DNA of 64,000 nucleotides from Gammaproteobacteria bacterium (GCA_013697705.1 JACCWJ010000004.1:30938-94937), one strand, 5' to 3'; shown: positions 5,814-39,735, counted from the stretch's first letter. Numbers and translations are program-made. Notes: a model not told the origin generated them from the letters alone.

Positions 5814-6764
5814 TTGATACATGATGCAGATAATATAGATGTTAAAACCTTCCAAGGCATGATTTTAGCTTTACAACATTACTGGGCAAAACAAGGCTGT
5901 ATTATCTTGCAGCCTTATGATATGGAAATTGGGGCGGGCACCTTTCATACCGCCACCTTCTTAAGGGCTATTGGCCCCGAACCCTGGAAAGCAGCTTATG
6001 TACAGCCCTCTCGTAGACCTACAGATGGTCGCTATGGAGATAGTCCCAATCGAACGCAACATTATTACCAATTCCAAGTGGTGCTCAAACCCTCTCCAGA
6101 CAACATCCAGGACCTCTATCTAGGTTCCTTACGTTACTTAGGAATCGACCCCCTTATCAATGATATCCGCTTCGTAGAAGACAATTGGGAATCACCCACC
6201 TTAGGAGCCTGGGGGCTGGGTTGGGAAGTATGGCAAAATGGTATGGAGATTAGTCAATTTACCTACTTTCAACAAATAGGCGGGCTTGAATGTCGACCTG
6301 TCACCGGTGAAGTCACTTATGGCTTAGAGCGAATTGCTCTCTACATACAGAAGGCTGACAGTTTTTATGATTTGGTGTGGACCAAAAATTCAGAAGGCAC
6401 GGTAACCTACGGTGATGTGTTTCACCAGAATGAAGTAGAAATGTCGACCTATAATTTTGAGTATGCAAATGTTGATTACTTATTCAGCCAATTTGATATT
6501 TACGAGCAAGAATCGCAAAAATTAATCGCGGCTAATCTGCCCCTTCCTGCCTACGAGTTTGTTCTTAAAGCTTCCCATACTTTTAATTTATTGGACGCAA
6601 GACGAGCCATATCAGTTACAGAAAGACAACGATTTATTCTTAGAGTAAGAAAATTGGCATTCGCCGTAGCGAAAGCCTATTATGAAACCCGAGAAAAATT
6701 GAACTTTCCACTGCTCTTAAAAAAAAACTCTAAACTAATGATGGATAAAGCCGCGGTCGTCTAA
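5814..6764 (+). CDS. glyQ: Glycyl-tRNA synthetase alpha subunit
   Basis: Near-identical blocks to E. coli GlyQ ([48 protein letters not shown]); annotated start is TTG at 5814, next in-frame ATG at 5859, so start uncertain. Confidence 0.9.
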
Positions 6765-6818
6765 GAATTATAATGTCTTGTCCATTTAAGCGGAGGAGAT
6801 GTAGCGTAAGAGGAAAAT

Positions 6819-8891: not shown

Positions 8892-8893
8892 TT

Positions 8894-10180: not shown

Positions 10181-10198
10181 TCCTATAAGAATACGCTA

Positions 10199-10636
10199 TT
10201 AATCTTTGATTCGTACGGCCAACACATCACATTTCGCACCATGTAATACTGCATTTGCGGTAGAGCCTAATAATAGTTGCATCCCATGACGTCCATGACT
10301 ACCCACTATAATCAGATTAATACCTAGATGCTCGGCTTCTTCCAGAATAAGCGCTTTAGCAGGGCCGACTTTAATATGCTGCTTGGCTTCGGGTACTTCT
10401 AGCTTTTTACCTATCTTAATCATTAATTCCTTAGCATTTTCCAGCAACATTTCTTCGATATCTGCGCCAGCAGCCACCCCATAAGCGGCTCCGTAGCTAC
10501 TCAAATGTTCTATAGCATGTAACAGGTAGATCTCGGCGTTAAATTCCTCGGCCAACATTTTAGCTTTTGCAACGGGTAGGTCATCACATTTTGTATCCAG
10601 TTCCACTGCTAATAAAATTTTACTGTACTTTTTCAT
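10199..10636 (-). CDS. uspA: Universal stress protein UspA family
   Basis: M-KKYSKILLAVELD..., IIVGSHGRHG and C-terminal GSTANAVLHGAKCDVL ATP-binding motif; probable start is the internal ATG at 10636 (RBS ggatgagg upstream) rather than ORF-track start 10660. Confidence 0.8.
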   Translation of the reverse strand: MKKYSKILLAVELDTKCDDLPVAKAKMLAEEFNAEIYLLHAIEHLSSYGAAYGVAAGADIEEMLLENAKELMIKIGKKLEVPEAKQHIKVGPAKALILEEAEHLGINLIIVGSHGRHGMQLLLGSTANAVLHGAKCDVLAVRIKD

Positions 10637-10809
10637 AGCCTCATCCCTTGTATTTAACAATTAAAAATATATCACAAGCACATGAACAGCCATAGCTTTT
10701 GAGCAGTTAAACTTAAAATAAGGGTTGTGTGAAAACGGTTAACTTCCTGTTATTTTACTGTGCGAGAACTAGGTTGCTTTTAAAGACCCTGAAATTATAC
10801 AGAGTTAAA

Positions 10810-10965
10810 CAGTTCTATCCCCAGGCTTATCCACACTCTCATAGGCTCAGATATTCTGTTAATGTATTAATTTTACTATGTTTTTCCAGGTTACCCACAT
10901 TAATAGGCCTCCTTAATAACCACAACTAAGTAATTAATTTAATTACTATTATTATTAATAATGCG
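10810..10965. promoter_or_regulatory. DnaA-box cluster plus AT-rich tract upstream of rpmH (oriC/ars-like or rpmH regulatory region)
   Basis: Perfect TTATCCACA at 10827-10835, 8/9 box TTACCCACA at 10891-10899, 7/9 boxes at 10814-10822 and 10915-10923; 40-nt >90% AT run 10925-10965; dnaA itself absent. Confidence 0.55.
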
Positions 10966-11058
10966 TTGGGGTTTTTATTTTTTTAGTGAATTTCTAGTTG
11001 AAAAATTATTAGCTCCTGTTATCCTTGGCTGTTTGATTTCGAACTGAAGAGAATCCCC

Positions 11059-11193
11059 ATGAAAAGAACCTTTCAACCCAGCAATTTAAGGCGTAAACGT
11101 GTCCATGGTTTTTTGGCTAGAATGGCTACTGCCAATGGTCGCAAGATATTAAAGAACAGAAGACGTAAAGGTCGCAAAGTATTAAGTGCTTAA
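11059..11193 (+). CDS. rpmH: 50S ribosomal protein L34
   Basis: 44-aa [47 protein letters not shown], textbook L34; not in ORF track because <60 aa. Confidence 0.95.
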
Positions 11194-11551
11194 ACCGAAA
11201 AAGTTAGAGAAGGATTCTAGACTTGCAGCCGCTGAGAGCTTTCAAAAAGTATACCGTAATGGGCGAAAATTCCGCCATCATGGTATCAGTGTCTTAGTAT
11301 GTCAGAATGAACTAGCTCATTCCCGGATTGGAATTAGCGTCGCCAAGAAGCAAGTGCCACGAGCAGTAGATCGTAATAGAATCAAGCGCATCGTCAGAGA
11401 AAGCTTTCGACTGAGACGAGATGATTTAACGGCCAATCTAGATATGGTGTTCTTGATTTATTCCACGCTGTTAGAGCTAAGTAATCACGAGATACAATTA
11501 TGTTTGGACTTTTTGTGGACAAAACTAATAAGTTTTTACAAAAAAGTATAA
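11186..11551 (+). CDS. rnpA: RNase P protein component
   Basis: GTG start overlapping rpmH stop; basic 121-aa protein with RNR-motif region [11 protein letters not shown]; canonical rpmH-rnpA linkage. Confidence 0.85.
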
Positions 11552-11781
11552 TTTTCGGTTTAAAAATTTATCGCTATACCCTAAGCCCCATGCTTGGGCC
11601 ACGATGCCGCTTTTACCCAAGTTGTTCGCAATACGCTATCGAGGCTTTAACTAACTGTGGCCTTATCAAAGGTAGTTATTTAATCGTACGACGTTTGTTA
11701 AAGTGTCATCCTTTTCATCCGGGCGGATATGACCCGGTCATTAGTTCGCATAATTTTTGTACCACGCCACAACCGAAGTAA
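11500..11781 (+). CDS. yidD: Membrane protein insertion efficiency factor YidD
   Basis: [26 protein letters not shown]...[13 protein letters not shown] matches YidD signature; start ambiguous (ATG 11500 or GTG 11515), overlaps rnpA 3' end. Confidence 0.8.
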
Positions 11782-11787
11782 TTAAAT

Positions 11788-13464
11788 ATGTATGATCGAA
11801 AAATTTACCTTTATTTTGCTTTAGCCATTACGGGTTTCCTACTTTGGACCGCATGGCAGAAAGATTACGCTCCAAAACCCCAAGTCGCAGCACAAGTTGC
11901 CCCTTCGGCTATTCAGCCTGTTTTAACTCCTGCAGCTCCAGGAAGTGTGACAACGGGAGAAAAAAATCCTCAAGACCGTTTTATTCAAGTGAAAACAGAT
12001 GCGCTTGATATAAAAATCGATAAAGTTGGGGGAAATATTGTTTCTCTTAAATTACTAAAGTACCCCGTAGCGTATGAAACTCCGCAAATTCCAGTCAGTT
12101 TGTTAACGGATGACACGGCAAATTACTATGTTACCGAGAGTGGCTTCGATAGCAAGAATGGACTCGAAACGTCAAAGACGATGTTTGAATCACCCCAAAG
12201 TGTTTATCAGTTAGACCCAAATAAAGACGATTTAGCGGTAGACCTTACTTGGAAGGGAAATAACATCACAGTCAAGAAGACCTATGTCTTCAAAAGAGGT
12301 AAGTACGATATCAACCTTAACCATGCTCTTCAAAATAATGCAAATGAAGCGTGGCAGGGCAATCTTTTTGCACAAATTAAGCGACGTGGCCTCTCCGATG
12401 AAAACAACATCTTTGGTTTACATACTTATCGCGGAGCTGCTATTTCCAGTCCTGCAGATGTGTATGAAAAAATCAGTTACAGCAAGATGGATAAGGAAAA
12501 CTTAAATAGGGTTGTTAAAAATGGCTGGCTTGCAATGCAGCAACGCTATTTTGTGAGCGCCTTAGTTCCCAACCTTGCTGAGCCGCTCCAATATTTTAGT
12601 AGTGTGTCTTCTATAGGCCCTACCGATAAACCCGCTGATAAAATCTATACCATTGGTTTTAAAACACCTGAACTTACAGTGCCGCCGCACAGTGTAAAAA
12701 ACGTTGCCACAACTTTGTACTCTGGTCCAGAAATTGCCGATGTGTTGAAACAAGTAGCACCTAACTTGGATCGCGTCATTGACTACGGATGGCTCTCTAT
12801 TTTTTCTGTTGCCATCTTCAAAGTAATGGAGTGGATACATCAATTTGTTAAGAATTGGGGCGTCGCCATCATTTTAGTAACGGTCATGATTAAGTTACTT
12901 TTCTACAAACTTTCAGAAACGAGTTATCGGTCCATGGCGAGGATGCGCAATTTACAACCTCGTTTATTAGCCTTGAAAGATAAATTTGGCGACGATCGAC
13001 AAAAATTAAGCCAAGCGACCATGGAGCTTTACAAAAAAGAAAAAGTAAATCCTTTGGGCGGTTGCTTGCCCATGGTCATACAGATCCCAGTGTTTATAGC
13101 ACTCTACTATGTGTTAATAGAAAGTGTCCAACTAAGACAAGCGCCCTTTATTTTTTGGATACATGATTTATCGGTAAAAGATCCCTTCTACGTTCTTCCC
13201 ATATTGATGGGGTTGAGCTGGATGATGCAACAAAAACTGAATCCGCCTCCGCCAGATCCTGTTCAAGCAAAAATGATGATGCTGTTTCCGGTCGTATTTA
13301 CGGTTTTATTTGCCACCTTCCCTGCAGGGCTAGTGCTCTACTGGATTGTAAATAACTGTTTATCTATTTTGCAGCAGTGGTACATCATGCGAAAGGTCGA
13401 AAATGAAGGCAAAAAATCGTTGCCGAAAACAAAGACAAAGACTCGAGTAAGCAGTAGTCGATAA
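11788..13464 (+). CDS. yidC: Membrane protein insertase YidC
   Basis: 558 aa, N-terminal TM, large periplasmic domain, C-terminal 5-TM core and lysine-rich tail; rnpA-yidD-yidC-mnmE synteny. Confidence 0.92.
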   Translation: MYDRKIYLYFALAITGFLLWTAWQKDYAPKPQVAAQVAPSAIQPVLTPAAPGSVTTGEKNPQDRFIQVKTDALDIKIDKVGGNIVSLKLLKYPVAYETPQIPVSLLTDDTANYYVTESGFDSKNGLETSKTMFESPQSVYQLDPNKDDLAVDLTWKGNNITVKKTYVFKRGKYDINLNHALQNNANEAWQGNLFAQIKRRGLSDENNIFGLHTYRGAAISSPADVYEKISYSKMDKENLNRVVKNGWLAMQQRYFVSALVPNLAEPLQYFSSVSSIGPTDKPADKIYTIGFKTPELTVPPHSVKNVATTLYSGPEIADVLKQVAPNLDRVIDYGWLSIFSVAIFKVMEWIHQFVKNWGVAIILVTVMIKLLFYKLSETSYRSMARMRNLQPRLLALKDKFGDDRQKLSQATMELYKKEKVNPLGGCLPMVIQIPVFIALYYVLIESVQLRQAPFIFWIHDLSVKDPFYVLPILMGLSWMMQQKLNPPPPDPVQAKMMMLFPVVFTVLFATFPAGLVLYWIVNNCLSILQQWYIMRKVENEGKKSLPKTKTKTRVSSSR

Positions 13465-25605: not shown

Positions 25606-26046
25606 ATGGCGATGAGCGTACATTTAGATATTGTAAGCGCAGAAGGTGAAATTTTTTCGGGGCGAGCTGAAATGGTAGCCGTCTCAGGCAGTCAGGGGGA
25701 ACTTGGTATCATGCCCGGTCATACTCCCCTGTTAACAACCTTAAAGCCTGGCTTAATAAGAGTCACCTTGCAAGGCGGTAAGCAAGAAGTCTTTTATATT
25801 TCGGGTGGGACCGTTGAAGTGCAGCCTGATATTGTCACGGTATTGGCTGACACTGCAGTTCGAGCTGAAGACTTAGATGAAATAGCCGCGATGGAAGCGC
25901 GCCAGCGTGCAGAGAAAACCGCCTCAAGTCGCAAATCAAATATTGAATATTCCCAAACATTAAGTGAGCTCGCAGATGCAGCGGCAAGACTTCGCGCTAT
26001 CAAACACGTGAAACAAATTCGTAAGAAATTCGGTCGAGGCGAATGA
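25606..26046 (+). CDS. atpC: F0F1 ATP synthase subunit epsilon
   Basis: 146 aa, last gene of operon. Confidence 0.9.
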
Positions 26047-27410
26047 CCTTAAGTGTGGTTATTCTGGCCGCAGGCTATGGCAAACGAATGTATTCGAAAT
26101 TGCCTAAAGTACTTCATCAGCTCGCAGGTCAGCCCCTTCTTCTCCATGTAATTAAAACAGCGCAGACGCTCAATCCAGATGCCATCTATGTAGTATATGG
26201 TAACGGCGGAAGTCGCGTCAGAGAAACATTAGGGGATTTGCCCGTTAATTGGGTAAATCAAGCCAACCCTAAAGGCACGGGCCATGCAGTTCTGCAAGCC
26301 TTGCCCCATATTCCCGATGATCACCAAGTTTTAATTCTTTATGGTGATGTGCCGCTTATTAAAACGGCTACTTTAAAACAGTTGTTGGCCGACAATGAGC
26401 AGCAGTTTGCACTTTTAGTAGCGACATTCGATGATCCTACCGGATTTGGACGGATCATTAGAAATCCTGATAACGAGATTGTGGCGATTATCGAGCATAG
26501 AGACGCTACACCCGACCAGTTATTGATTCAGGAAGTGAATACTGGAATTTTAACAGGTCCCGCTGCTGCCTTTAAAAGATGGTTGCCCCAACTCAAAGAT
26601 CACAATGCGCAATCTGAATATTATTTAACTGATATCATCTCCCTTGTCGCTGAAAATGACCATAAAATCGCTGGTCTTTTAGCTCCCTCTCTCGAGGAAG
26701 TGGCGGGTGTTAATGACCGAAAAGAATTAATGCGGTTAGAGCGCTATTATCAGAGCCAAAAAGCGCTGGAGTTGCTAGAACAAGGTGTAACTATCATTGA
26801 TCCTTCACGTTTTGATTGTAGAGGCACACTAAATATTGCTAACGATGTAACCTTAGACATCAATGTGATCTTGAGCGGAGAAGTAGCTATTGACGAAGGT
26901 AGCTATATAGGACCGAATACCCTATTGAATAATGTAAAAATAGGCAAAAATGTAATCATAAAATCGAATTGTGTCATTGAGGATGCCGTTATAGAGGATG
27001 GCTGTCAAATTGGCCCCTTTGCGCGAATACGACCTCACACGCAACTGGGCAAAGAAGTTCACATCGGAAATTTTGTGGAGCTGAAAAATACGAAAATTGA
27101 TGACTTTAGCAAGGTGAATCACCTTACCTACCTGGGGGATTCAACCTTAGGTAAGAGAGTAAATGTGGGAGCAGGCACAATTACCTGTAATTATGATGGC
27201 ATCAATAAGTTTGAGACTCTCATTAAAGATGGTGCCTTTATTGGTTCTGGCACGGAACTGGTGGCGCCCATTACTATAGGTGAAAATGCCTATATCGGCG
27301 CAGGCTCAACGATTACTCGAGACGCCCCTGACGCTCAATTGACTCTAAGTAGAGCTAAACAAACCACTATTAATGGCTGGTCCAAGAAGAAAGGCGAATC
27401 CTTAGACTAA
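26043..27410 (+). CDS. glmU: Bifunctional GlcNAc-1-P uridyltransferase / glucosamine-1-P acetyltransferase GlmU
   Basis: N-terminal LAAGYGKRM nucleotidyltransferase motif and C-terminal left-handed beta-helix hexapeptide repeats; follows atpC as in E. coli. Confidence 0.93.
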
Positions 27411-28279
27411 TTGGAACACTCGACTTCGTCAAAACCTTTGCAAAAAGGTTGGCTGCAAATCGTTTGAGTACCGATGATAAAAGTGGGGGTACAGCGATTA
27501 CTATCTATTTTACAATTCACCGATTGTTTGAAACCCATCGACCGGCAAAATGAATCAGCAGCGGGTTTGCCACATTCTTTATTTAATTTTAAACAGCAAT
27601 CGACCCGTAAATTGCCCATTTTAGGCTTGCGATAGATTTTAGTGACTTTGCGTCGCACCGTTTTAACGACGGGTACTGTGGGAGAGGGTTGATCACTAAA
27701 GGTTTGATTAAAAACAGTTTGCGCCACGTCTTCTTTGTGTCTGGCAGCAGAGAGGGATAGAGCAATCGCTTCTTGTAAAATGGCTTGGTTGCGAGCTAAC
27801 GGTGGGTATTGACCCGTTATTGTTTCAAAAGGAGGGTATAAGCCGGTTCTTTCATTATAAACGCCCCCCAAATTAGTGTACTGAGTATTATTTTGATAAG
27901 CCTCTAGAGAGCATTGTGCTTTAGTAAGCCAGGGGTCGTCATCACATCGTAATTCTGCAACAACTGTTTGTTTACTGGAAGAAAAGGTAGTTGTTTCCTT
28001 GCCCCAATTTTGGTCACCGTCCCATTCAGCCACCACATCCGCCCATAAGTTTTGATAAATCCACCGGGTACCCACGGGGATTTTAATCGAACAAATGCCG
28101 CTGAAATAATAATAATGTTTTTTGCTCAGCGAAACCCCTTCAGCCCCTTTAAGCTTAAGTTTGCAAATATATGGGGGGCTTAAGTCGGTGATATAGCCAT
28201 GAAAAACGGACGTAGCAGAAGCGGAATAATTGTATGCTAAGCAAATAATAAATAATAATCCGCGTAAATAAAGTTGCAT
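27407..28279 (-). CDS. Hypothetical secreted protein, Cys-rich basic C-terminal region, no recognisable domain
   Basis: 290 aa, N-terminal signal peptide (MQLYLRGLLFIICLAYNYSASA), 12 Cys mostly in last 70 residues (CCLKLNKECGK...[11 protein letters not shown]); no family recognised. Confidence 0.5.
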   Translation of the reverse strand: MQLYLRGLLFIICLAYNYSASATSVFHGYITDLSPPYICKLKLKGAEGVSLSKKHYYYFSGICSIKIPVGTRWIYQNLWADVVAEWDGDQNWGKETTTFSSSKQTVVAELRCDDDPWLTKAQCSLEAYQNNTQYTNLGGVYNERTGLYPPFETITGQYPPLARNQAILQEAIALSLSAARHKEDVAQTVFNQTFSDQPSPTVPVVKTVRRKVTKIYRKPKMGNLRVDCCLKLNKECGKPAADSFCRSMGFKQSVNCKIDSNRCTPTFIIGTQTICSQPFCKGFDEVECSN

Positions 28280-28338
28280 GCATTATCCCTTGGGTAATTG
28301 ATTTCCTAAGATAGTATACCTTTGCAACGAAGCCCCTG

Positions 28339-29352
28339 TCATCCTAGGGTAGAGGTAAATGGCTTTAGGTTAGCGTTTTTGATGAGAATGTCAGATAGAG
28401 ATTGGATATGTAGATCAGTTGTATTTAAAGCAGAAATGTAATTGTAAATGAGCCCGCCTGCTTGATGAAAAATCTTTTTATTTGTTATTGCCATTTCCTC
28501 TAATGTTTCTAAACAATCGACCGCAAATCCGGGACAAATTACATCAATATGTTTATATCCTTCCTTCGGTAGATCTTGTAGCACCTTATTACAGTAAGGT
28601 TGTAACCACTCTTCACGACCAAAGCGAGATTGAAAGACCACACCCCATTTTTTTTCCTCTAAATTTAATTTTGAAGCAACTTGGGCTGCGGTATCTAAAC
28701 ATTGATCAAAATAGGGGTCACCTTTGGCAATGAGTTTTTTAGGAATCCCATGAAACGAAAATAGCAATTTTTGTCCGGGTATTTGTTTTTGCCAATGATT
28801 ATGAATGGTATGAGCCAACGCAGAAATATAACTGGGCTCATATGCATAATTTTCAATAAAATGTAATGTCGGTTCCCATTTAAGTTGTTGCAATTGCTTT
28901 TTAATGGCGTGGACCGTAGAAGCAGTCGTAGTGGTTGAATATTGTGGGTAAAGTGGGAATCCAATAATCTGAGTTACCCCCTGTTCACGAAGATTTATCA
29001 ATGCTTGTTTAATCGAAGGTTCGCCATAACGCATACCCAGCGCATATTTGAATGTATAGCCACGACTTGTCATAGCGCCACGTAGTTTTCTGACCAATTC
29101 CGAGCTAAAAACTAATAATGGCGAGCCAGATTTAGTCCAAATTTTTTGGTAAAGTTTTGCCGATTTTTTAGGCCGCGTGCGAAGAATGATCCCATTTAGG
29201 ATTAACCACCACAAAGGTCTTGGAATTTGAACAATGAATGGATCCCACAAAAATTCTTTTAAATATTTTTTTACTGCAGAGGGGGTCGGTTGGTCAGGGG
29301 TGCCTAAATTGGTGATCAACACACCTATTTTGGGGGGATTGGTATTACTCAT
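28339..29352 (-). CDS. hemH: Ferrochelatase
   Basis: 337 aa; KIGVLITNLGTPD start, FSFHGIP and conserved H/E active-site blocks. Confidence 0.88.
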   Translation of the reverse strand: MSNTNPPKIGVLITNLGTPDQPTPSAVKKYLKEFLWDPFIVQIPRPLWWLILNGIILRTRPKKSAKLYQKIWTKSGSPLLVFSSELVRKLRGAMTSRGYTFKYALGMRYGEPSIKQALINLREQGVTQIIGFPLYPQYSTTTTASTVHAIKKQLQQLKWEPTLHFIENYAYEPSYISALAHTIHNHWQKQIPGQKLLFSFHGIPKKLIAKGDPYFDQCLDTAAQVASKLNLEEKKWGVVFQSRFGREEWLQPYCNKVLQDLPKEGYKHIDVICPGFAVDCLETLEEMAITNKKIFHQAGGLIYNYISALNTTDLHIQSLSDILIKNANLKPFTSTLG

Positions 29353-29397
29353 ACATTATCTTTGCCATTGTGTTACGGGAGCCGTTCTCGTATTTAA

Positions 29398-30324
29398 TCA
29401 TTGGTAAATATGTCTTAACGCTGTAGTAATATCTGAATACGTAAATTTAAACCCGTGAGATAATAATACCTGAGGATCCACACATTGACCATTCAGTAGT
29501 AATTCCTCACCCATCTGACCTAATAGTGTTTTAATCAAAAAAGCAGGCGTTTTTAAAATAGCGGGTCGATGTAAAATGCTGGCAAATGCGTTGGCAAATT
29601 GTTTTTGCGATATACAGCCAGGAGCAGCAAAGTTTACTGGCCCTTGAATAGTGGGTTGGGTGATAAGAAAATTAATTGCTGCGATGAGATCGTCAAGTTC
29701 AATCCAAGCGAGCGGTTGATCTCCGGTGCCAATTGGACCGCCTAAACCTAAAGAAAACGGCAGCTTGAGTTTACCAAGCAGACCTTTTTTATCGAGCACC
29801 AATGAAAACCGCATATTCACTACTCTAACACCTGCATTGCTAGCTGGAAGAGTGGCCTCTTCCCATTGCTGCGCAACTTGATGTAAAAAATCTGTATTGT
29901 GAGTAAAACGATCAGCAGCTTCTTCAGTTAAGGGTTGGGCCACCTTGTTGTGTTGTCCATAAATTCCTACCGCGCTTGCATTGAACAGGGGCGGTGATTG
30001 CTCGCCGAGTTTAGCGCAGCTCTCTGCCACTGTGTGGGTAGTGTGTACACGACTTTCAATAATTGCTTGTTTCCTTTCCTTACTCCAGCGTTTTTCACCA
30101 ATATTTGTGCCGGCCAGATTGATGATGAGATCCGCGTTATGGAGTAAGGATAGACTCTCTTGATTAAACCTATCCCAGGTCAGGGCAACGACTTGATTGC
30201 GGTAGATGTCTTTAATTTTCTGTATGTTTCTTCCTAAAACTATAATCTCATTGCCACTCGCTAAAAAATAGCGAGCTAATGATTGACCAATAAACCCTGT
30301 GCCCCCTGCTATAATTATTTTCAT
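29398..30324 (-). CDS. NAD-dependent epimerase/dehydratase family protein (TIGR01777/YfcH-like, DUF1731 C-terminus)
   Basis: Rossmann GGTGFIGQ at N-terminus, 308 aa, C-terminal region typical of YfcH family. Confidence 0.75.
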   Translation of the reverse strand: MKIIIAGGTGFIGQSLARYFLASGNEIIVLGRNIQKIKDIYRNQVVALTWDRFNQESLSLLHNADLIINLAGTNIGEKRWSKERKQAIIESRVHTTHTVAESCAKLGEQSPPLFNASAVGIYGQHNKVAQPLTEEAADRFTHNTDFLHQVAQQWEEATLPASNAGVRVVNMRFSLVLDKKGLLGKLKLPFSLGLGGPIGTGDQPLAWIELDDLIAAINFLITQPTIQGPVNFAAPGCISQKQFANAFASILHRPAILKTPAFLIKTLLGQMGEELLLNGQCVDPQVLLSHGFKFTYSDITTALRHIYQ

Positions 30325-30336
30325 CTTTTGCCTCGT

Positions 30337-31350
30337 TTAATGGTAACCGCTTCCGGCATGCACCTTCCCTCTAAATACGGTATAGGCGTAGATACTATAG
30401 GTGATTAATAAAGGTAACAGAATAATAGCCCCCACTAATTGGAATAAGAGCGTTTTAGGATTGGCAGCCGCTTCCCATAATGTTAGCTGCCGAGGCACTA
30501 TATATGGCCATGTGCTTATTCCTAAGCCGATATAACCAAATATAAATAGCAACACGCTCAAAATGAAGGGCAATCCCTCCTTTTTACCCGTTGGATGTTT
30601 GAGACAATATGCCGCATATAAAGTGGTCATAATTGTTGCAGCGGGAAGAGGCAGTAAGTAGAAAAAATTAGGCAATGAGAACCAGCGAATTTTAATGTCT
30701 GGGTGAATGAAAGGCGTCCATATACTGACGATAAACATAAAAACCGCAACGCAAAAAAGTAAAATTTTGGCGGCTTGATACATGGTTTTTTGTAAATTGT
30801 TTTCTGTCTTCATAATGAGCCAGGTTGACCCTAGCAATGCATAGCCAAAAACAACGGCGATTCCAGTCGCCATACTAAAAGGGGTTAACCAACCATAAGC
30901 TTCGGCTGAGCCTGGAATTAAAAAATAGCCTTGGATAAAAGTGCCTAGTATGAGTCCCTGACAAAAAGCGGCCATGGTGGATCCACCTGCAAAGGCTAAA
31001 TCCCACAAAAAAAGACTTTTATGGGCTTTAATTCTGAACTCAAAAGCAACGCCGCGAAAAACCAGAGAGCCTAGCATGACCATAATAGGCATATATAATG
31101 CAGGCAACAAAGTGCTATAAGCTAAGGGAAAAGCCCCGTACAATGTTGCGCCCCCGAATACTAGCCACGTTTCATTACCGTCCCAGACAGGCGCGATGGT
31201 ATCCATCATAATACTGCGATACTCATGATCCTGGACCCAGGGAAATAAAATTCCAATGCCAAGATCAAACCCATCTAAAATAACATAGACGATGACGCCA
31301 AACGCAATTAGACCTGCCCAAATTAGGGGCAGCATATTATTCATTATCAT
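30337..31350 (-). CDS. cydB: Cytochrome bd ubiquinol oxidase subunit II
   Basis: 337 aa, 8-9 TM, overlaps cydA stop by 14 nt; DGFDLGIG and W/GN motifs. Confidence 0.88.
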   Translation of the reverse strand: MIMNNMLPLIWAGLIAFGVIVYVILDGFDLGIGILFPWVQDHEYRSIMMDTIAPVWDGNETWLVFGGATLYGAFPLAYSTLLPALYMPIMVMLGSLVFRGVAFEFRIKAHKSLFLWDLAFAGGSTMAAFCQGLILGTFIQGYFLIPGSAEAYGWLTPFSMATGIAVVFGYALLGSTWLIMKTENNLQKTMYQAAKILLFCVAVFMFIVSIWTPFIHPDIKIRWFSLPNFFYLLPLPAATIMTTLYAAYCLKHPTGKKEGLPFILSVLLFIFGYIGLGISTWPYIVPRQLTLWEAAANPKTLLFQLVGAIILLPLLITYSIYAYTVFRGKVHAGSGYH

Positions 31351-32713
31351 CTAAAACCTCATCGTTAGGTTGAGGCATGTAACCTAATGTTAATGTGGGG
31401 ATCTCTAAATGCTCCGGTCCTTTCCGAATGGTTTTGAATAAATAATAGAGATAAAAGCTAAAAACAAAACCATAGCCCACAATGAAAAGCATTAAGGAAA
31501 TAAGAACATGTTCCATGGGGATGTTTGAGGCTGCATTCGCAGTGCGCATTAATCCATAAACGATCCAGGGTTGCCGTCCCGATTCTGCGGTAATCCACCC
31601 AGCAATTGCTGCAATAAAACCTAAAGGGCTAATCCAGATACAGAGACGTAGAAACCAGTTCTTGGTAAAAAGTGCTTTACGGTAGAGCAAAATTGCGCCC
31701 ATCCAGGCAGTCAGGATAAAAAGCATCCCTATGGCTACCATAATACGAAAACCGAAAAACGTGGGGGCCACTACGGGTTGGTCAGCTTTAGGCACTGAAT
31801 TTAGCCCAATGAGTGTACCCTGAAATGAATGTGTATTAATTAAGCTCGCACCATAAGGAATTTTCACTTCAAAAAGATTTTTGCCTTGAGTCGACGATGG
31901 AATTGCAAACACAACAAAGGGGGCGCCTTGCATCGTATTCCAGTTAGCTTCGATGGCTGCGGTTTTTAGAGGTTGATAATGGTAGATGTTGAGGCCCATA
32001 AGATCACCCACAAACAGCTGTAAGGGCCCTACGATTGCCGCCAGACAAATCGCTATGGCCAGGCAGGGTTTTGCTAAATCGATAGCGCGTTTTTTTAGAA
32101 TATACCAACTGGATATGCCGGTAATGACAAAACAGGTTGTTAAGAGTGCAGCGAGTATCATATGAATAAAACGAGGGATGAAAGAAGGATTGAAAATAAC
32201 TTCAGACCACGCTTTTACTATGAACTTATTGCCTATCAAATAATATCCCGTGGGAGTCTGCATCCAAGAGTTTGCTGATAAAATCCAGAACGCAGAGATA
32301 ATGGTGCCGATTGTCACGAGCAAAGTAGCGGAATAATGAATTTTAGGATTTACCTTTTTCCAGCCAAACAACATGATGCCGAGAAATCCTGCCTCCAAGA
32401 AGAAAGCGCTCATGACTTCATAGGCAAAAAGTGGCCCTAACACTTCACCTACTGCATTAGTGAAGCCATTGAAATTAGTTCCTAACTCATAGGAGAGTAC
32501 AACACCAGAGACCACGCCCATGCCAAAGGTAAGTGCGAAAATTTTTGTCCAGAATTTACAGATTTGGAGATATTTAGGATTTTGAGTTTTTAGCCAAATA
32601 CCTTCAAATATACAAATGAAAATAGCTAAACCAATGTTCAGGGTGGGGAACAAAATATGAAATCCAATCGTAAAGCCAAATTGGATGCGAGATAAAATTA
32701 ACGTTGTAAACAC
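31337..32713 (-). CDS. cydA: Cytochrome bd ubiquinol oxidase subunit I (short Q-loop type)
   Basis: 458 aa; conserved GRQPW, heme-ligand His/Met positions; shorter than E. coli CydA consistent with short Q-loop. Confidence 0.88.
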   Translation of the reverse strand: MFTTLILSRIQFGFTIGFHILFPTLNIGLAIFICIFEGIWLKTQNPKYLQICKFWTKIFALTFGMGVVSGVVLSYELGTNFNGFTNAVGEVLGPLFAYEVMSAFFLEAGFLGIMLFGWKKVNPKIHYSATLLVTIGTIISAFWILSANSWMQTPTGYYLIGNKFIVKAWSEVIFNPSFIPRFIHMILAALLTTCFVITGISSWYILKKRAIDLAKPCLAIAICLAAIVGPLQLFVGDLMGLNIYHYQPLKTAAIEANWNTMQGAPFVVFAIPSSTQGKNLFEVKIPYGASLINTHSFQGTLIGLNSVPKADQPVVAPTFFGFRIMVAIGMLFILTAWMGAILLYRKALFTKNWFLRLCIWISPLGFIAAIAGWITAESGRQPWIVYGLMRTANAASNIPMEHVLISLMLFIVGYGFVFSFYLYYLFKTIRKGPEHLEIPTLTLGYMPQPNDEVLDDNE

Positions 32714-32832
32714 GCTGATTTTCTCCTAAAAAAACAGGTTTTATTAAACCATGATCGAGAATAAATGTATAATATCTAAATCATTTTTTTAAAATATATT
32801 TAAATTCACCTTACTTAATAATTAGACAAACT

Positions 32833-34167
32833 ATGAGAAACTCCATTACCCGAGAATTTAAGGGTATTTTTCATCTGGCCCTCCCTTTAATTTTTAATTT
32901 ACTAGCATACATGGCAATGCAGGTTATTAGCACCGTTATGCTCGGAAGGTTAGGCCCTCAAGCATTAGCCGCAGCTGCAGTGGGTAACGTTATTTATATT
33001 ATTATCTTGGTGGGATGTATGGGTGTTCTTACTGCTGTAGGAACATTAGCCGCAGAGGCATTTGGTAAAAAAGATCAGATGAAAGTACAAACGATTAGTC
33101 AGCAAGGAATTTGGCTTGCCATATTTTTAAGTATTCCTGCTCTGTTAGTCGTTTGGAACGCGCATCATATATTATTAGCTATCCACCAGCCGGTGGAAGT
33201 CGTTCGGGGGGCAAAAAGTCTCTTGCACGGACTTTTTTGGGGGTTCCTACCCGAATTATGTTTTATTGGTTTGAGAGAATTTTCCACCGCCATTTCAAGA
33301 CCTAAAATTGTTATGTTTATCTCTGTTGGAACCATCCCCGTAAATATAATGTTAAATTATTGGTTCATTTATGGTGGATTAGGTTTACCGGCTATGAAAA
33401 TATTCGGAGTAGGGTTGGCTACTTCAATTGTTTGTTGGCTATCCTTCCTTGTATTAGCGCTCTATCTTTCGCTGCATCGCAATATTTATCATTATAAAAT
33501 TTTGCAATTTACACTTCCACATTGGAATACGCTAAAACGTATTGTCAAATTAGGGCTTCCCGTTGGAACGAGTTTTGTGGTTGAAGAACTCTTATTTGTG
33601 ATTGTCGCATTACTTATTGGTTACTTTGGTGTCGTTGCACTTGCAGCGCACCAAATAGCCATTCAATGCATGTACCTATTTGTAATGATACCTATTGGGA
33701 TCGCACAAGCGGTAGCCGTAAAGGTGAGCCAGGCTCGAGCAGATCCAACAAGGGTGTCTGCCTTTCGCGTCGCTTACATTGCTATCGGCTCTGGCCTAGG
33801 TTTAGCATTTATAACCGCTTGCCTATTTTGGTTTTTTCCAAAATTTTTCGTTCATTTTTTTCTAAATGTGCACATAGCTCAAAATCAACCTGTGCTTCAG
33901 CTGGCTGTAAAACTACTGGCCATTACAGCCATATTCCATATTATTGATGCGGGGCAATTAATAACAAATGGTGCGCTGCGTGGATTTCAAGATACATTAG
34001 TGCCGATGTTTTTAGGGTTAATTTCATTTTGGTTGATGGGAATAGGAAGTGGATATGTGTTTGGTTTCATTTATCACTATGGGGCGGTGGGATTATGGTG
34101 GGGTTTGGCGCTAGGTATTGCAAGCTCCGCAATCTTGCTACAACTGCGTCTGCAAACACATAAATAA
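32833..34167 (+). CDS. MATE family multidrug/Na+ efflux transporter (NorM/DinF-like)
   Basis: 444 aa, 12 predicted TM, N-terminal GIFHLALPLIFNLLAYMAMQVISTVMLGRLG typical of MATE. Confidence 0.82.
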   Translation: MRNSITREFKGIFHLALPLIFNLLAYMAMQVISTVMLGRLGPQALAAAAVGNVIYIIILVGCMGVLTAVGTLAAEAFGKKDQMKVQTISQQGIWLAIFLSIPALLVVWNAHHILLAIHQPVEVVRGAKSLLHGLFWGFLPELCFIGLREFSTAISRPKIVMFISVGTIPVNIMLNYWFIYGGLGLPAMKIFGVGLATSIVCWLSFLVLALYLSLHRNIYHYKILQFTLPHWNTLKRIVKLGLPVGTSFVVEELLFVIVALLIGYFGVVALAAHQIAIQCMYLFVMIPIGIAQAVAVKVSQARADPTRVSAFRVAYIAIGSGLGLAFITACLFWFFPKFFVHFFLNVHIAQNQPVLQLAVKLLAITAIFHIIDAGQLITNGALRGFQDTLVPMFLGLISFWLMGIGSGYVFGFIYHYGAVGLWWGLALGIASSAILLQLRLQTHK

Positions 34168-34175
34168 ACTGAAGT

Positions 34176-34220
34176 GATTGCATTCCTTGATGTAGCGAAG
34201 CGAAATCAAGGAATGCAATC
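34176..34220. repeat. REP-like palindrome: 16-bp perfect stem (gattgcattccttgat / atcaaggaatgcaatc) with 13-nt loop gtagcgaagcgaa
   Basis: Exact inverted repeat between convergent MATE gene and OM protein gene; loop is near-identical (12/13) to loop of hairpin copy at 45797-45833 whereas stem sequence differs (compensatory). Confidence 0.7.
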
Positions 34221-34235
34221 GCCTTGTGAAAGATT

Positions 34236-34877
34236 TCAGAACCAATAACGCAGCGCTAATCCGACTGCTGTAGAGCCGGTATTGTTTGCATGGTAAAGAC
34301 CGAATGCCCCTGAGCGATGATGAATACGAGCAATGATCTCCCATTCTGGATGACTAGGAAGACCAAAGGCCAGATCGAGTAATAAAAAATTTAATAACTT
34401 TTTTGCCTCTTCTGAATTTTTTTCTTCCGAGTAAGGTACCTTGGTGACATAGGATATCCCCTCCCCTACAGAAATGGTGGTTTTAAATTTGTGTCGCCAG
34501 GGAAAATGATACCAATTGAAAGCAATGTAAGGATTAAACTCTAAGATATCGCCATAGGTATCCTGCAGAACAGTAAAATTACCTCTGAAATCTACCGAGC
34601 TCATGATGGGTTGAAGAAAGCGTCGGACTGGATTGCAAGGATTTAACTCCTTGCCTATTTCTAATGAGTAAAGCGTATCTTTGTTTAAGGAATAATTGAA
34701 TGCGATTACTTCACCTAAATTATCGTTAGTCATTTTTCCGTAATAGATTAATGCAAACCATTGGGGATAATAGGCTGTGGGAAAAGCGGTTGTGCTATTG
34801 CACAAATCAGCGTAGGAATTAGTTCCCATTAATAATAATATAAGAACATATAAGCGTTTCAAGTAGTATTCCCTCAT
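34236..34877 (-). CDS. Small outer-membrane beta-barrel protein, possibly PagL-like lipid A deacylase
   Basis: Signal peptide, 213 aa, alternating amphipathic strands, C-terminal ...LALRYWF with terminal Phe (OMP signature); HHRSG segment loosely resembles PagL His-x-Ser catalytic motif. Confidence 0.45.
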   Translation of the reverse strand: MREYYLKRLYVLILLLMGTNSYADLCNSTTAFPTAYYPQWFALIYYGKMTNDNLGEVIAFNYSLNKDTLYSLEIGKELNPCNPVRRFLQPIMSSVDFRGNFTVLQDTYGDILEFNPYIAFNWYHFPWRHKFKTTISVGEGISYVTKVPYSEEKNSEEAKKLLNFLLLDLAFGLPSHPEWEIIARIHHRSGAFGLYHANNTGSTAVGLALRYWF

Positions 34878-34987
34878 CGTTGGGACGAAAAAACTGTAAT
34901 ATAACTGTAACTATTCAGCACTATTTGATATTTGGCAAGAACATCTAGAGGCATACAATTGTTAATAACATCTAAAGAGAAATATAA

Positions 34988-37669
34988 GTGACGTTATCTC
35001 AAAAGCCAGTCGTTTTGATTGATGGTTCATCCTATCTTTATCGGGCATTTCACGCCTTACCCCCATTAGCAAATACTAAGGGAGAACCTACAGGCGCTAT
35101 TTATGGGGTGATAAGTATGATCAAAAAACTTATCAATGATTATGAGCCTGATTACATGGCGGTCATATTTGACCCGAAAGGCAAAACACAGCGGGATGCC
35201 ATTTATAGTGAATATAAAGCGCACCGCCCTCCTATGCCAACCGATTTATCCATGCAAGTGGGACATATTTTTGAAATTATTAAGGCAATGGGTTTGCCCA
35301 TTATCATCGAGGATGGAATTGAAGCAGATGATGTGATTGGTACTTTAGCGAACCAGGCAACCGAGTTAGGCATGTCAACGCTCATTTCTACGGGTGACAA
35401 AGACATGGCGCAGCTAGTGAGCCCTACTGTGACCCTAATTAATACAATGAATGGCATAATTTTTGACCGTGAAGGCGTGATCAAAAAATTTGGTATTCCT
35501 CCAGAACAGATCGTCGACTACCTCTCTTTAATAGGGGATAAAGTAGACAATGTCCCTGGTATACCAAATGTAGGTCCAAAAACCGCAGTTAAATGGCTAG
35601 CTGAGTATGGATCCCTTGAAGGTGTCATAGCGCACGCCGGAGAAATAAAAGGTAAGGTCGGAGAAAATTTACGAGAACATTTGCCTATCCTTTCACTCTC
35701 AAAAAAACTGGTCACCATTTTCACAGATATAAACTTAGCCGAAAAAATACCCGATCTCACTAAACAAGAACCGGATAAAGCATTACTCCTTGCTCTTTAT
35801 AAACATTTAGAATTCAAAACATGGTTGTCAGAATTACTCTCGGAGCAAGTCAGTCATGCGCATGAAAAATATCACGTAATTTTAAACGAAACAGATCTTG
35901 CAAAGTGGGTAGAACGATTGTCGCTTTGTAACATTTATTCGTTTGATATTGAAACGACGCATTACGATGCAATGTTGGCTGAATTAGTGGGTATTGCATT
36001 TGCAATTGCGCCTAAAGAATCAATCTATATTCCCTTAGCTCATGATTACGAGGACGCTCCAGCACAGCTAAATACCCAGAGAGTTTTAGCTGCGCTTTTG
36101 CCAATTCTTCAAGATCAAAACAAAATTCTTATTGGAGAGAATTTAAAATTTGTGTTGAATGTATTGCTGCATTACGGAGTAGAAGTGAGTAATCAAATGT
36201 ACGACACGATGTTAGAGTCCTACGTGCAAAATAGTTCGCTTGCGCGTCATGATAAAAATAGCTTATCACTAAAATATTTAGGAAGACAATCTATCAGTTA
36301 TGAAGAAGTTGCGGGTAAGGGGGCGAAGCAAATTATCTGTAACAAATTAGATATTGAAAAAGTGACTCAATATGCCGCTGAAAGCGCGGACATTATTTTT
36401 CAATTACACCACACTATGTGGGAAAAAATAGCTAACGATCAACATATGAAAAAAATCTTAGTTACGTTAGAAATGCCACTTCTCAGAGTATTAGCGCGCA
36501 TGGAATATGAGGGGGTGTTGATTAGCGCCGAGATGTTACATCAACATAGTATCGAACTAACCAAGCGCATCCAGTCATTAGAAGAAGAAGCCTACACTTT
36601 AGCGGGATGCAAATTTAATTTAGGTTCACCCAAGCAATTACAAACAGTGTTTTATGAAAAATTACAGCTGCCCATCTTAAGTAAAACGCCTACCGGACAG
36701 CCCTCAACATCGGAAGCCATTTTACAAGAATTAGCGCATGACTATCCTTTGCCGCGCATTATTCTTGAATATCGTACGTTAAATAAAATCAAAACGACTT
36801 ATACGGATAAACTTCCTCTGCAGATTAATCCCAAAACAGGGCGAGTGCATACTTGTTACAATCAAGCGGTTACAGCCACTGGACGTCTTTCTTCAACTGA
36901 TCCCAATCTTCAAAATATACCTATTAGAACTGAGGAGGGGCGCAGAATTCGCCAAGCCTTTATTGCATCACCCCACCATAAAATAGTGTCTGCCGACTAT
37001 TCTCAAATCGAACTGCGAATTATGGCGCATCTAGCAAAAGACCCGGGTTTATTGCATGCATTTGCCAATGACCAAGACATTCATATTGCTACTGCAGCAG
37101 AAGTTTTTGGATTAACTATTGATCAGGTGACCCACAGCCAAAGACGTAGTGCAAAGGCCATTAATTTTGGACTCATTTATGGCATGTCTGCCTTCGGGTT
37201 ATCGCGTCAATTAGGCATAGATCGCCAAACCGCGCAAAACTATATCGAGCGGTATTTTGAGCGTTATCCTAAAATCAAAGGTTATATGGAAATGACACGT
37301 GTTTTTGCCCACCAACATGGTTATGTAGAAACTTTACAAAAACGACGTCTTTATTTACCCGAAATTAATGCCACCAATTTACAACGGCAGAAGGCTGCTG
37401 AAAGAGCGGCAATCAATGCACCTCTGCAAGGAACAGCAGCTGAGATTATTAAAATGGCGATGATTCATATTGATAACTGGCTGCAAACTTCTAAGCTCGG
37501 CACCAAGATGATAATGCAAGTACATGACGAATTGGTTTTTGAGGTACCCGAGTCGGAAGTTGATGAAGTGATTGCGAAAGTTACATCTTTTATGGTGAAT
37601 ACTATTGAATTAGATGTTCCATTGGCAATTGATATAGGAATTGGAAATAATTGGGATGAGGCACATTAA
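34988..37669 (+). CDS. polA: DNA polymerase I
   Basis: 893 aa; 5'-3' exonuclease N domain, 3'-5' exo motifs, polymerase motif A DYSQIELR and motif C QVHDELVFEV; GTG start. Confidence 0.95.
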   Translation: MTLSQKPVVLIDGSSYLYRAFHALPPLANTKGEPTGAIYGVISMIKKLINDYEPDYMAVIFDPKGKTQRDAIYSEYKAHRPPMPTDLSMQVGHIFEIIKAMGLPIIIEDGIEADDVIGTLANQATELGMSTLISTGDKDMAQLVSPTVTLINTMNGIIFDREGVIKKFGIPPEQIVDYLSLIGDKVDNVPGIPNVGPKTAVKWLAEYGSLEGVIAHAGEIKGKVGENLREHLPILSLSKKLVTIFTDINLAEKIPDLTKQEPDKALLLALYKHLEFKTWLSELLSEQVSHAHEKYHVILNETDLAKWVERLSLCNIYSFDIETTHYDAMLAELVGIAFAIAPKESIYIPLAHDYEDAPAQLNTQRVLAALLPILQDQNKILIGENLKFVLNVLLHYGVEVSNQMYDTMLESYVQNSSLARHDKNSLSLKYLGRQSISYEEVAGKGAKQIICNKLDIEKVTQYAAESADIIFQLHHTMWEKIANDQHMKKILVTLEMPLLRVLARMEYEGVLISAEMLHQHSIELTKRIQSLEEEAYTLAGCKFNLGSPKQLQTVFYEKLQLPILSKTPTGQPSTSEAILQELAHDYPLPRIILEYRTLNKIKTTYTDKLPLQINPKTGRVHTCYNQAVTATGRLSSTDPNLQNIPIRTEEGRRIRQAFIASPHHKIVSADYSQIELRIMAHLAKDPGLLHAFANDQDIHIATAAEVFGLTIDQVTHSQRRSAKAINFGLIYGMSAFGLSRQLGIDRQTAQNYIERYFERYPKIKGYMEMTRVFAHQHGYVETLQKRRLYLPEINATNLQRQKAAERAAINAPLQGTAAEIIKMAMIHIDNWLQTSKLGTKMIMQVHDELVFEVPESEVDEVIAKVTSFMVNTIELDVPLAIDIGIGNNWDEAH

Positions 37670-37747
37670 CGTATCCGTTGTTAACGTTAATTGGATGCGA
37701 TGAAGCAACTTCTCATCGAGAGGGCACTTCGCTGAACACGTGCAATA

Positions 37748-39580
37748 TTATTCTACAGTAACCGATTTCGCTAAATTTCGTGGCTGATCCACATCGGTGC
37801 CTTTTAACACAGCAACATGGTACGCCAATAATTGGAGTGGAATAGTATATAGTATTGGTGCCAATTCCTTGCTCACGGTGGGCATGTGAAATACATGGGT
37901 ATGTTCTGACTCCGGAATGTTTGCAGATTGATCAGCAAATATAATTAATTCTCCACCCCTAGCTTGTACTTCGCAAATATTCGATTTTAATTTCTCGAGC
38001 AATTCATCATTAGGTGCTACAGCAATCACAGGCATCTCTTTATCTACTAGCGCGAGTGGACCATGTTTTAATTCTCCAGCGGGGTAAGCTTCCGCATGAA
38101 TATAAGAAATTTCTTTGAGTTTGAGCGCTCCTTCCATGGCTATGGGAAAATGTAATCCTCGCCCTAAAAATAAGGCATGTTGTTTATCAATGAATTTTCG
38201 GGCTAGTTGTCTAATCACGTCATCCAAGGCAAGCGCTTGCTCTACGTAAGAGGGTAAATAGCGGAGTTCTTGAACAAAATATTGCTCTTGTTCTGCGCTA
38301 ATTTTACGGTTTCTGCCTAATAGCAGGGTTAACAAGAATAAGGTGGCAAGCTGCGTAGTAAATGCCTTTGTTGATGCCACACCGATCTCCATGCCTGCTC
38401 GGGTCATCAGTATTAGATCAGATTCACGAACTAGGGAACTTTGAGAGACATTACAAATGCCTAATGTTGCCATATGCCCTATAGATTTAGCTTGTCGCAA
38501 AGACGCTAGAGTGTCGGCGGTTTCTCCGGATTGAGAGATGCACACGAATAAAGAATTCGCCTCGACCACGCCCTGACGATATCTGTTTTCGCTGGCAATT
38601 TCGACTTGACAAGGAAGGCCGGCAAGACTCTCCAGCCAATATCGACCTACCATTGCCGCATGATAACTTGTGCCGCAAGCGACGATTTGCACACGCTCAA
38701 TACGACTGATATCGGCCAGGGTTTTATCCAGGGTATCGACAATCACCTTGTTGTCATCGAGACGGCCATCCAGGGTATCGCGAATAGCTTGTGGTTGATC
38801 AAAGATCTCTTTTAACATGTAGTGGCGATAGGGGCCTCGTTCTACAGAATCTTGATGAATATTCAAGGTATGAATTTTCCGAGAGACTTGGTTACCCAAA
38901 TTATCATAGATGATGAGATGGTCTCTTCTAACATCGGCAATGTCCCCTTCTTCAAGGTAGATAAATTGCTGGGCTACGGGCATTAAAGCCAGCGGATCTG
39001 AAGCAAAAAAATGTTCCTTAATTCCCAGTCCGACAACTAATGGGCAGCCACTTCTCACAGCAATGAGGCGATTCGGCTCGTTTTTAATCATGATTCCTAA
39101 TGCATACGCACCTTTAAATGTTTTGACCGCAGCTTGAACGGCAGCAAGTATATCTTTATGTTCGATATAGTATTGATGAATGATATGCGCACCTACTTCG
39201 GTATCAGTTTCAGAACTAAAAGAGTAGCCTGATTCCAATAGGGCCGCTCTTAAGAGCGCATGATTTTCAATAATTCCATTGTGGACAATAGCGATATAGT
39301 CATTAGAAATGTGGGGATGTGCGTTGAGCTCGCTGGGTTTTCCATGGGTTGCCCAACGCGTATGGGCAATGCCGGTGTGTCCGGGAATGTCTGTTAGGTT
39401 TAAAACATCTGCCAGTTCACACACCTTCCCCTGGGTTCGAATGCGCTGTAGTGTTTGATTATTGGGATCTAAAATTGCAATGCCTGCAGAGTCATATCCT
39501 CTATACTCCAAGCGCTTAAGGCCTTCCAATAAAATGGGAGCAACATTCCTTTGCGCAACAGCGCCTACAATCCCACACAT
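37748..39580 (-). CDS. glmS: Glutamine-fructose-6-phosphate aminotransferase GlmS
   Basis: True start MCGIVGAV (catalytic Cys2) at ATG 39580, ORF-track start 39634 adds 18 non-native residues; two SIS domains, C-terminal ...AKSVTVE. Confidence 0.93.
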
Positions 39581-39735
39581 ATGTGATTCCTCTTTGATTA
39601 TTCTATTCTGATAACGTAATATCTTTTCTATCAAAAAACCAGTGTAACCCGCAATTAATTAGGTAATTCTTTATGCATACAGACGATCTTTTGCAACGTT
39701 CTGATATCGATTCTACCCATGGAGCTAAGAAATTC

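Follow-up and report, generated by a model that had tools for sequence, protein, structure and literature searches.

SRCR domains are roughly 100-110 amino acids (aa) long, and their six or eight cysteines form a canonical set of disulfides (C2-C7, C3-C8 and C5-C6, with or without C1-C4). Found in proteins such as hepsin, enteropeptidase, CD5/CD6, CD163 and LOXL2 (Pfam PF00530/PF15494), they are extracellular modules that have no one function in common and are regarded as a feature of animals (PMC4448552). In bacteria, each FlgH subunit of the flagellar L-ring is decorated by YecR (Pfam PF13992; solved structure 7bgl), a lipoprotein of the outer membrane (bioRxiv 10.1101/2020.12.05.413195). 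The present analysis concerns a gene in a 64,000-nucleotide stretch of DNA from Gammaproteobacteria bacterium (GCA_013697705.1 JACCWJ010000004.1:30938-94937; the whole stretch is referred to as the window, with positions counted from its first letter), the product of which ends in a cysteine-rich module with a predicted SRCR-like fold. This gene and its homologues are termed X. The protein is laid out as follows:

27407..28279, minus strand: complete coding sequence of X, an exported two-domain protein of 290 aa (from the listing of open reading frames (ORFs) and the sequence; TAG stop codon 27407-27409 included).
28214..28279, minus strand: type I (Sec) signal peptide, residues 1-22, MQLYLRGLLFIICLAYNYSASA followed by TS..., by rule-based assessment.
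27692..28213, minus strand: N-terminal domain (N-domain), residues 23-196, comprising a six-strand antiparallel beta-meander (37-130), a conserved GxYPPF/GQYPPLARNQAI segment of low model confidence and a long helix (168-194).
27644..27691, minus strand: variable basic linker, approximately residues 197-212, poorly conserved and of variable length in the alignment of the close family.
27410..27643, minus strand: cysteine-rich module, residues 213-290 (78 aa), SRCR-like in its predicted fold.

An earlier note on this DNA had placed a gene for 290 aa at 27407-28279, and this reading is correct; the ORF is on the minus strand and begins with ATG. A database entry, 'MAG: hypothetical protein H0U71_00915 [Gammaproteobacteria bacterium]', has the same protein sequence, MAG denoting a metagenome-assembled genome.

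On profile evidence, the C-terminal module belongs to a large bacterial family with six conserved cysteines (Cys6) that neither Pfam nor NCBIfam contains. Searched exhaustively with a profile, 1.84 billion cluster representatives (clusters at 50% identity) yielded 1,547 proteins at E<=1e-3, of which 527 reached E<=1e-10; almost all of the 1,547 matched profile positions ~210-291 only, i.e. the C-terminal module. Module copies and instances were counted among the best 147 matches of this search: the module was present in 144 of them, in exactly two copies in 122 and in up to five in some. The module-bearing proteins are most commonly 150-250 aa long, and a signal-peptide-like N-terminus was apparent, by a crude check, in 114 of the 144. 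Across 267 module instances the six cysteine columns (profile columns 18, 25, 34, 64, 69 and 77) are 99-100% cysteine, and the consensus reads F-x2-P-x3-G-x-RLDWC-x2-WG-x2-CG-x-PAAD-x-FC-x3-GY-x2-A ... PT-x-(I/V)G-x4-C-x4-CDGF-x2-I-x-C. A hidden Markov model (HMM) built from module instances without the close family of X matched the window protein with 85.2 bits (E=9.8e-26) over HMM positions 2-78 of 78; the six canonical cysteines of the window module (C229, C236, C245, C275, C280 and C288) stand in register with the family columns, and both the CG-PAAD-FC and the PT...G motifs are present. Scans against Pfam and NCBIfam gave nothing above threshold for the module instances, the close family or the window protein, the last of which had zero matches at E<=10. 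Additionally, sequence and profile searches of the PDB yielded chance-level matches only, and a word-indexed homologue search with the module alignment returned a single, uninformative match.

The module is a mobile domain. It occurs together with extracellular binding domains, namely Big_9, cadherin-like, PKD and fn3 domains in one protein (P0061) and PAN_4 in another (P0105), and its named carriers in Roseovarius salinarum, Aestuariivirga sp. and Legionella adelaidensis are all annotated as 'hypothetical protein'. Names drawn from cluster members were likewise just 'hypothetical protein' or were owed to other domains. The view in the earlier note that this is a lineage-specific secreted protein thus does not hold for the C-terminal module, which has matches in more than 1,500 clusters, including those of the three named organisms. 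The latter encode exported proteins of ~190 aa with two modules each (WP_157932943.1 in R. salinarum, MEQ1520461.1 in Aestuariivirga sp. and WP_058461638.1 in L. adelaidensis), which resemble the window protein in that their six cysteines are in register with the window module and their N-terminus is signal-peptide-like. In contrast to the window protein, with its 174-aa N-domain, linker and single module, they contain nothing besides the two modules, they lack the one invariant and two variable additional cysteines of the window family, and their genes lie in neighbourhoods unrelated to hemH; no recurring partner gene was found around them. The L. adelaidensis gene (194 aa; signal peptide and two Cys6 modules) directly follows dnaE on NZ_LR134427.1, labelled 'plasmid 18'; this 54-kb sequence also holds gatCAB, sohB and ccmA-F and therefore looks like chromosomal DNA. 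In P0105 (660 aa; HKO09237.1, 'Alphaproteobacteria bacterium') a TIR_2 domain (6-122) precedes two Cys6 modules (370-447 and 480-557) and PAN_4 (592-642), so that a cytoplasmic signalling domain is fused to recognition modules of the exported type.

Nine cysteines (C228, 229, 236, 245, 256, 263, 275, 280 and 288) fall within the last 63 residues of the window protein, in agreement with the C-terminal sequence quoted in the earlier note. The accompanying description of the last 70 residues as basic is weakly true: residues 226-290 have an isoelectric point (pI) of 7.6, with eight Lys/Arg against seven Asp/Glu, and it is the stretch containing the linker (196-225; pI 11.6) that is strongly basic. 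Beyond the six canonical positions, C256 is invariant in the hemH-linked family of close homologues, and C228 and C263 mostly co-vary; many members therefore carry an odd number of cysteines. The co-variation suggests that C228-C263 and C275-C280 are disulfide pairs. A metal-binding cysteine cluster was judged unlikely, as the cysteines are spread over the strands and helix of a compact exported domain and neither CxxC nor His clusters are present. Six members of the close family have no C-terminal module at all, and in the two of these for which the DNA was checked no module remnant was detected in any frame; module and N-domain are therefore separable units.

AlphaFold modelling of the module with an alignment of 57 diverse instances (A2) gave a pLDDT (per-residue model confidence) of 96.9 and a pTM (overall fold confidence) of 0.86, with the order beta-beta-beta-beta-alpha-beta-beta-beta-beta. 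In the predicted model a beta-sheet cradles a single alpha-helix, as in the SRCR fold; the SRCR domain of hepsin was returned as a structural match and was independently recovered with the full-length model. The SRCR-like fold of the module family is thus predicted with very high model confidence. Furthermore, the SRCR consensus around the helix (WG-x2-C ... A-x2-(V/F)-C-R-x2-G-x2/3-A) resembles the module motif, and both kinds of domain are extracellular or exported, frequently occur as tandem repeats and are combined with other binding domains. They differ in that one is regarded as animal and shows no detectable sequence relationship to the other, which is bacterial and, at 78 aa with six cysteines, shorter. 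Neither SRCR profile (PF00530 or PF15494) matched any of the 57 module instances or 28 family members at E<=10, and solved SRCR chains did not appear in the PDB profile search at E<=10. As the predicted fold is thus without a sequence signal, the module is called SRCR-like in fold rather than a member of the SRCR family. A literature search for bacterial SRCR-like domains found nothing relevant. Six invariant cysteines, a compact alpha/beta model of high confidence and a fold otherwise known from extracellular SRCR domains uphold the earlier proposal of an exported, disulfide-stabilised C-terminal module. A PAN/Apple assignment was considered and rejected, since there was no match to the PAN_1, PAN_2 or PAN_4 profiles and the predicted fold is not that of PAN.

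The signal peptide was called by rule-based inspection rather than with a dedicated predictor. In the window protein it comprises R6, the hydrophobic core LLFIICLAY and alanines at -3 and -1, with cleavage predicted at ASA|TS, i.e. the features of a Sec substrate of signal peptidase I. All 28 family members possess a basic n-region (1-3 basic residues), a hydrophobic core (Kyte-Doolittle mean over 10 residues of at least 2.08) and Ala, Gly or Ser at -1, and conservation within the family sets in sharply at T23/S24, the predicted mature N-terminus, with the motif (T/A/D)S-x-FH. On these grounds the Sec signal claimed in the earlier note is corroborated. No lipobox was found in the family by the same inspection, and C13 of the window protein lies outside any such motif and is not conserved.

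A search of 5.8 billion proteins identified 27 homologues of the window protein at 48-67% identity, all unnamed and none with a Pfam domain; their alignment with it (A1, 28 sequences) has ~46 invariant positions. X is consequently not the orphan that it had been taken for, having these homologues, distant relatives of both of its domains and a fixed place after hemH. In a pattern-based scan covering 185,579 species genomes, only four contained the close family, one of them titled 'Coxiellaceae bacterium UBA6002', and it is this one title that supports the earlier description of the organism as Legionellales-type.

The N-domain retains four invariant cysteines (C39, C63, C112 and C123), the motifs DLSPPY-x-C, DDPW, NNT and a duplicated G-x-YPP(F/L) ending in GQYPPLARNQAI, and the further conserved residues Y57, W86, E95 and N130/T132. 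The full-length AlphaFold model has a pLDDT of 77.8; the meander (37-130) is modelled confidently (pLDDT 82-94) and followed by the helix at 168-194, while confidence is low for the YPP segment (140-157) and the mature N-terminus. Residues 140-165 (~27785-27862), in which G-x-YPP(F/L) is duplicated (TGLYPPFE ... TGQYPPLARNQAI), are near-invariant in the family with an AlphaFold pLDDT below 50, and the duplicated motif may be a conserved flexible or partner-binding segment. In structural searches of the N-domain with Foldseek, the top 11 matches were all Ups1/Mdm35 (E 0.017-0.12), with TM-scores of only 0.22/0.36. The Ups1/PRELI/SLMO lipid-transfer proteins, which are START-like, resemble the modelled N-domain in their curved antiparallel sheet and long C-terminal helix; they differ in that scores are weak, merely ~90-100 residues are aligned and sequence similarity is absent, and beta-barrel and lipocalin-like proteins score just as highly. 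The model thus weakly suggests a likeness to cupped-sheet lipid binders, and it supports a putative cupped-sheet binding domain, nothing more specific.

Eight distant relatives of the N-domain, at 23-28% identity, keep the four cysteines, Y57, G61, W86, E95, DPW, N-x-T and YPPLAR. In five of them (P0032, P0034, P0052, P0087 and P0139; 23-27% identity) a long Pro/Lys-rich linker likewise joins the N-domain to a single canonical module, and among the distant relatives this linker spans 30-200 aa. The neighbourhoods of three of the eight (P0034, P0087 and P0042, which has no module) were inspected: hemH was near none of them, and no recurring partner gene was found beside them. P0042, a metagenome protein of 477 aa (L018:227-1660), carries in place of the C-terminal module a Cys/Trp/Pro repeat, roughly 'CPWWNP-x-CNPWVPP' in ~8 copies, and then a long Pro/Lys-rich tail, with no Pfam match.

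Within the close family the gene order around X is strikingly constant on one side. In the window, the following features lie directly upstream of the X start codon:

28339..29352, minus strand: hemH (ferrochelatase; Pfam PF00762, E=3e-111), the codirectional upstream neighbour, which is context rather than part of the protein.
28313..28342, minus strand: match to a sigma-70-like promoter, ATGACA-18 nt-TATACT, which overlaps the stop codon of hemH and lies 34 nt 5' of the X start codon.
28286-28291, minus strand: Shine-Dalgarno-like AAGGGA, 6 nt ahead of the X ATG, read from the sequence.

Nine distinct loci with upstream DNA were available (the window, L001, L004/L010, L005/L013, L006, L007, L008, L011 and L012). 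In all nine, hemH lies directly 5' of X on the same strand and X forms the end of a cydA-cydB-(SDR/DUF1731)-hemH array, while the other flank varies: glmU-atp, three inserted genes and then glmU, a shikimate dehydrogenase (aroE-like) gene, a 1,678-aa ORF or a 135-aa ORF. The gap between hemH and X ranges from 13 to 421 bp, being 13-14 bp in two loci and 237-421 bp in others, so that co-transcription of the two is plausible in some genomes and not assured. The sigma-70-like match is directed into X and has the top consensus score (10/12) within 27000-33200; as a consensus match only, carrying no evidence of function, it suggests a candidate internal promoter inside the cyd-hemH-X array. Compared with the window proteins, identity is 48-64% in X, 55-69% in hemH, 57-65% in glmU, 51-58% in the SDR protein and 65-78% in cydA; the rate at which X evolves is therefore about as low as that of the housekeeping genes beside it. 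Any link of the window protein to haem would derive from gene order alone, and a literature search for cysteine-rich proteins near ferrochelatase, or for hemH/cyd/DUF1731 linkage, found nothing relevant. Two of these loci have peculiarities of their own. In L007 a 74-aa ORF without a Pfam match (L007:5625-5849) is inserted between hemH and X, where the gap is 421 bp. In L005/L013 (MAG MFD01633.bin.2.38; positions 1608-2964 and 6001-11856) the cydA match is broken across two frames near 2533, owing to a frameshift, a pseudogene or an assembly error, and the X homologue, which lacks the C-terminal module, is followed by the 1,678-aa ORF, itself without a Pfam match.

The explanation that we prefer, tentatively and at a little short of an even chance, is that X encodes a Sec-exported, disulfide-stabilised envelope protein that uses its SRCR-like module for docking or recognition and carries a clade-specific ligand-binding head on a flexible linker, and that it is passed on vertically and conserved to the degree of a housekeeping gene. 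On this explanation the protein would be exported by Sec and fold in the oxidising cell envelope into two disulfide-stabilised parts connected by the flexible basic linker. The C-terminal module, a small beta-sheet cradling one helix, would act in the manner of SRCR and similar scaffolds as a rigid unit docking onto, or recognising, another envelope or surface component, and the N-domain would be the functional head that binds a ligand, possibly a hydrophobic one; the final location may be the periplasm, the outer membrane or the cell surface. The protein would thus be a component of the envelope, conserved and inherited vertically within one clade of uncultured Gammaproteobacteria, and X, as the last gene of the cydAB-(SDR/DUF1731)-hemH array, may be co-expressed with it. 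The descriptive parts of this explanation (export signal, domain architecture, family membership, predicted fold, synteny and degree of conservation) are much firmer than the mechanism. Several observations weigh against it: the six family members without the C-terminal module indicate that at least part of the function does not require it; the module has an odd number of cysteines (seven or nine) in many members; the distant N-domain relatives that were looked up are not beside hemH, and the gene order may accordingly be mere clade-level synteny; and every homologue is 'hypothetical'.

The idea advanced in the earlier note, that the protein is secreted by an intracellular Legionellales-type bacterium and serves in host interaction or adhesion, would have it cross the outer membrane, e.g. 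by type II secretion, and bind a host ligand through the SRCR-like module. A Sec signal combined with a disulfide-rich module whose fold serves extracellular recognition in animals is in keeping with this, as are the presence of the module elsewhere alongside adhesin-type domains, the confinement of the close family to a few uncultured lineages, one titled Coxiellaceae, and the two-module protein of a Legionella species. The module is, however, widespread and also occurs in Roseovarius salinarum and Aestuariivirga sp., which we take to be free-living; X is conserved to about the same degree as glmU and the SDR gene, with no sign of recent acquisition; and the sequence gives no indication of passage through the outer membrane. 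A host-interaction role is thus somewhat disfavoured, and we consider this explanation unlikely. In a special case of the explanation that we prefer, the protein would be functionally coupled to hemH and cytochrome bd, either carrying a hydrophobic cofactor in the periplasm or serving in its assembly; the sheet and helix of the N-domain would hold haem, a porphyrin, a quinone or a lipid, and the C-terminal module would dock to a membrane partner. The same-strand adjacency of hemH and X in nine of nine cydAB-(SDR)-hemH-X arrays, maintained even where the downstream flank has changed, argues for it, as does the narrowing of the hemH-X gap to 13-14 bp in two loci; yet the promoter-like site directly upstream of X and the gaps of 237-421 bp elsewhere leave co-transcription unassured, the distant relatives sit in unrelated gene neighbourhoods, and the Pfam/NCBIfam scans gave no match to known haem-binding families. 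Haem ligation by H27, the candidate axial ligand, is weakened because this residue is not conserved in the distant N-domain relatives. Taken together, such a carrier appears rather improbable.

A docking role onto an outer-membrane beta-barrel assembly would follow if the C-terminal module were a distant YecR-type unit, a possibility to which we assign little credence. YecR is, like the window protein, a small envelope protein, and it binds another envelope protein, FlgH, in the L-ring (bioRxiv 10.1101/2020.12.05.413195). The helix motif AD-x-(F/A)-C-x3-GY-x2-A-x2-F, with three more cysteines after it, is common to YecR and the module, giving both the layout Cys-in-helix ... C ... C ... C-terminal Cys. 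PF13992 matched the CG-PAAD-FC-GY helix in 10 of the 57 module instances and in 12 of the 28 family members, at best with E=4.7e-4, and hhalign of A2 against E. coli YecR gave 60% probability over 23 columns. All of the PF13992 matches, however, fall below the gathering threshold of 27 bits, with related modules reaching at most 22.3 bits and the window protein giving none; the broad module HMM scored YecR at only 7.3 bits over 19 residues; and the YecR chain 7bgl was not returned by the PDB profile search at E<=10, nor was YecR recovered by fold searches. Unlike the window protein, which has no lipobox, YecR is a lipoprotein, with four cysteines, and the similarity is sub-threshold and ~20 residues long. 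Membership of the module in the YecR family was therefore rejected on the grounds of the sub-threshold scores, the unrecovered 7bgl and the missing lipobox, and what remains is a short motif resemblance. The most far-reaching proposal would take the Cys6 family as the true bacterial counterpart of animal SRCR domains, either as an ancient homologue or as the source of a gene transfer, and as a large unrecognised class of extracellular recognition modules, which in the hemH-linked protein would dock a PRELI-like periplasmic carrier of haem, porphyrin or lipid for cytochrome bd/hemH; we regard this as a long shot.

The window protein itself is of modest importance, being a clade-restricted envelope protein and an ordinary 'conserved hypothetical'. 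The wider result carries more weight, as the tail of this protein led to a domain family of more than 1,500 clusters without a Pfam, NCBIfam or PDB sequence match, and on which no literature was found; exposing this family is useful, not startling. Should the predicted fold be confirmed, a fold so far seen as a feature of animals would gain a bacterial branch, and many 'hypothetical' exported proteins, some of them in Legionella, would receive a name and a structural hypothesis. The strict adjacency of X to hemH offers a concrete and testable functional lead.

With respect to the wider locus, the GC content of X (0.43-0.44) equals that of the neighbouring genes; a compositional signal of recent horizontal acquisition was sought and not found, and no paralogues of X were found within the window. 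The TAG stop codon of X (27407-27409) overlaps the TAA stop codon of glmU (27408-27410), so that X and glmU (26043-27410, plus strand) converge and share the four nucleotides 27407-27410, as the earlier note had reported. Its placement of X as the first gene of the block that separates glmU from glmS (37748-39634, minus strand) is likewise in accordance with the coordinates of the neighbours. The block consists of X, hemH, SDR/DUF1731, cydB, cydA, MatE, a 213-aa ORF (34236-34877, minus strand; without a Pfam match) and polA. It leaves glmU and glmS on opposite strands with ~10 kb between them (window 26043-39634).

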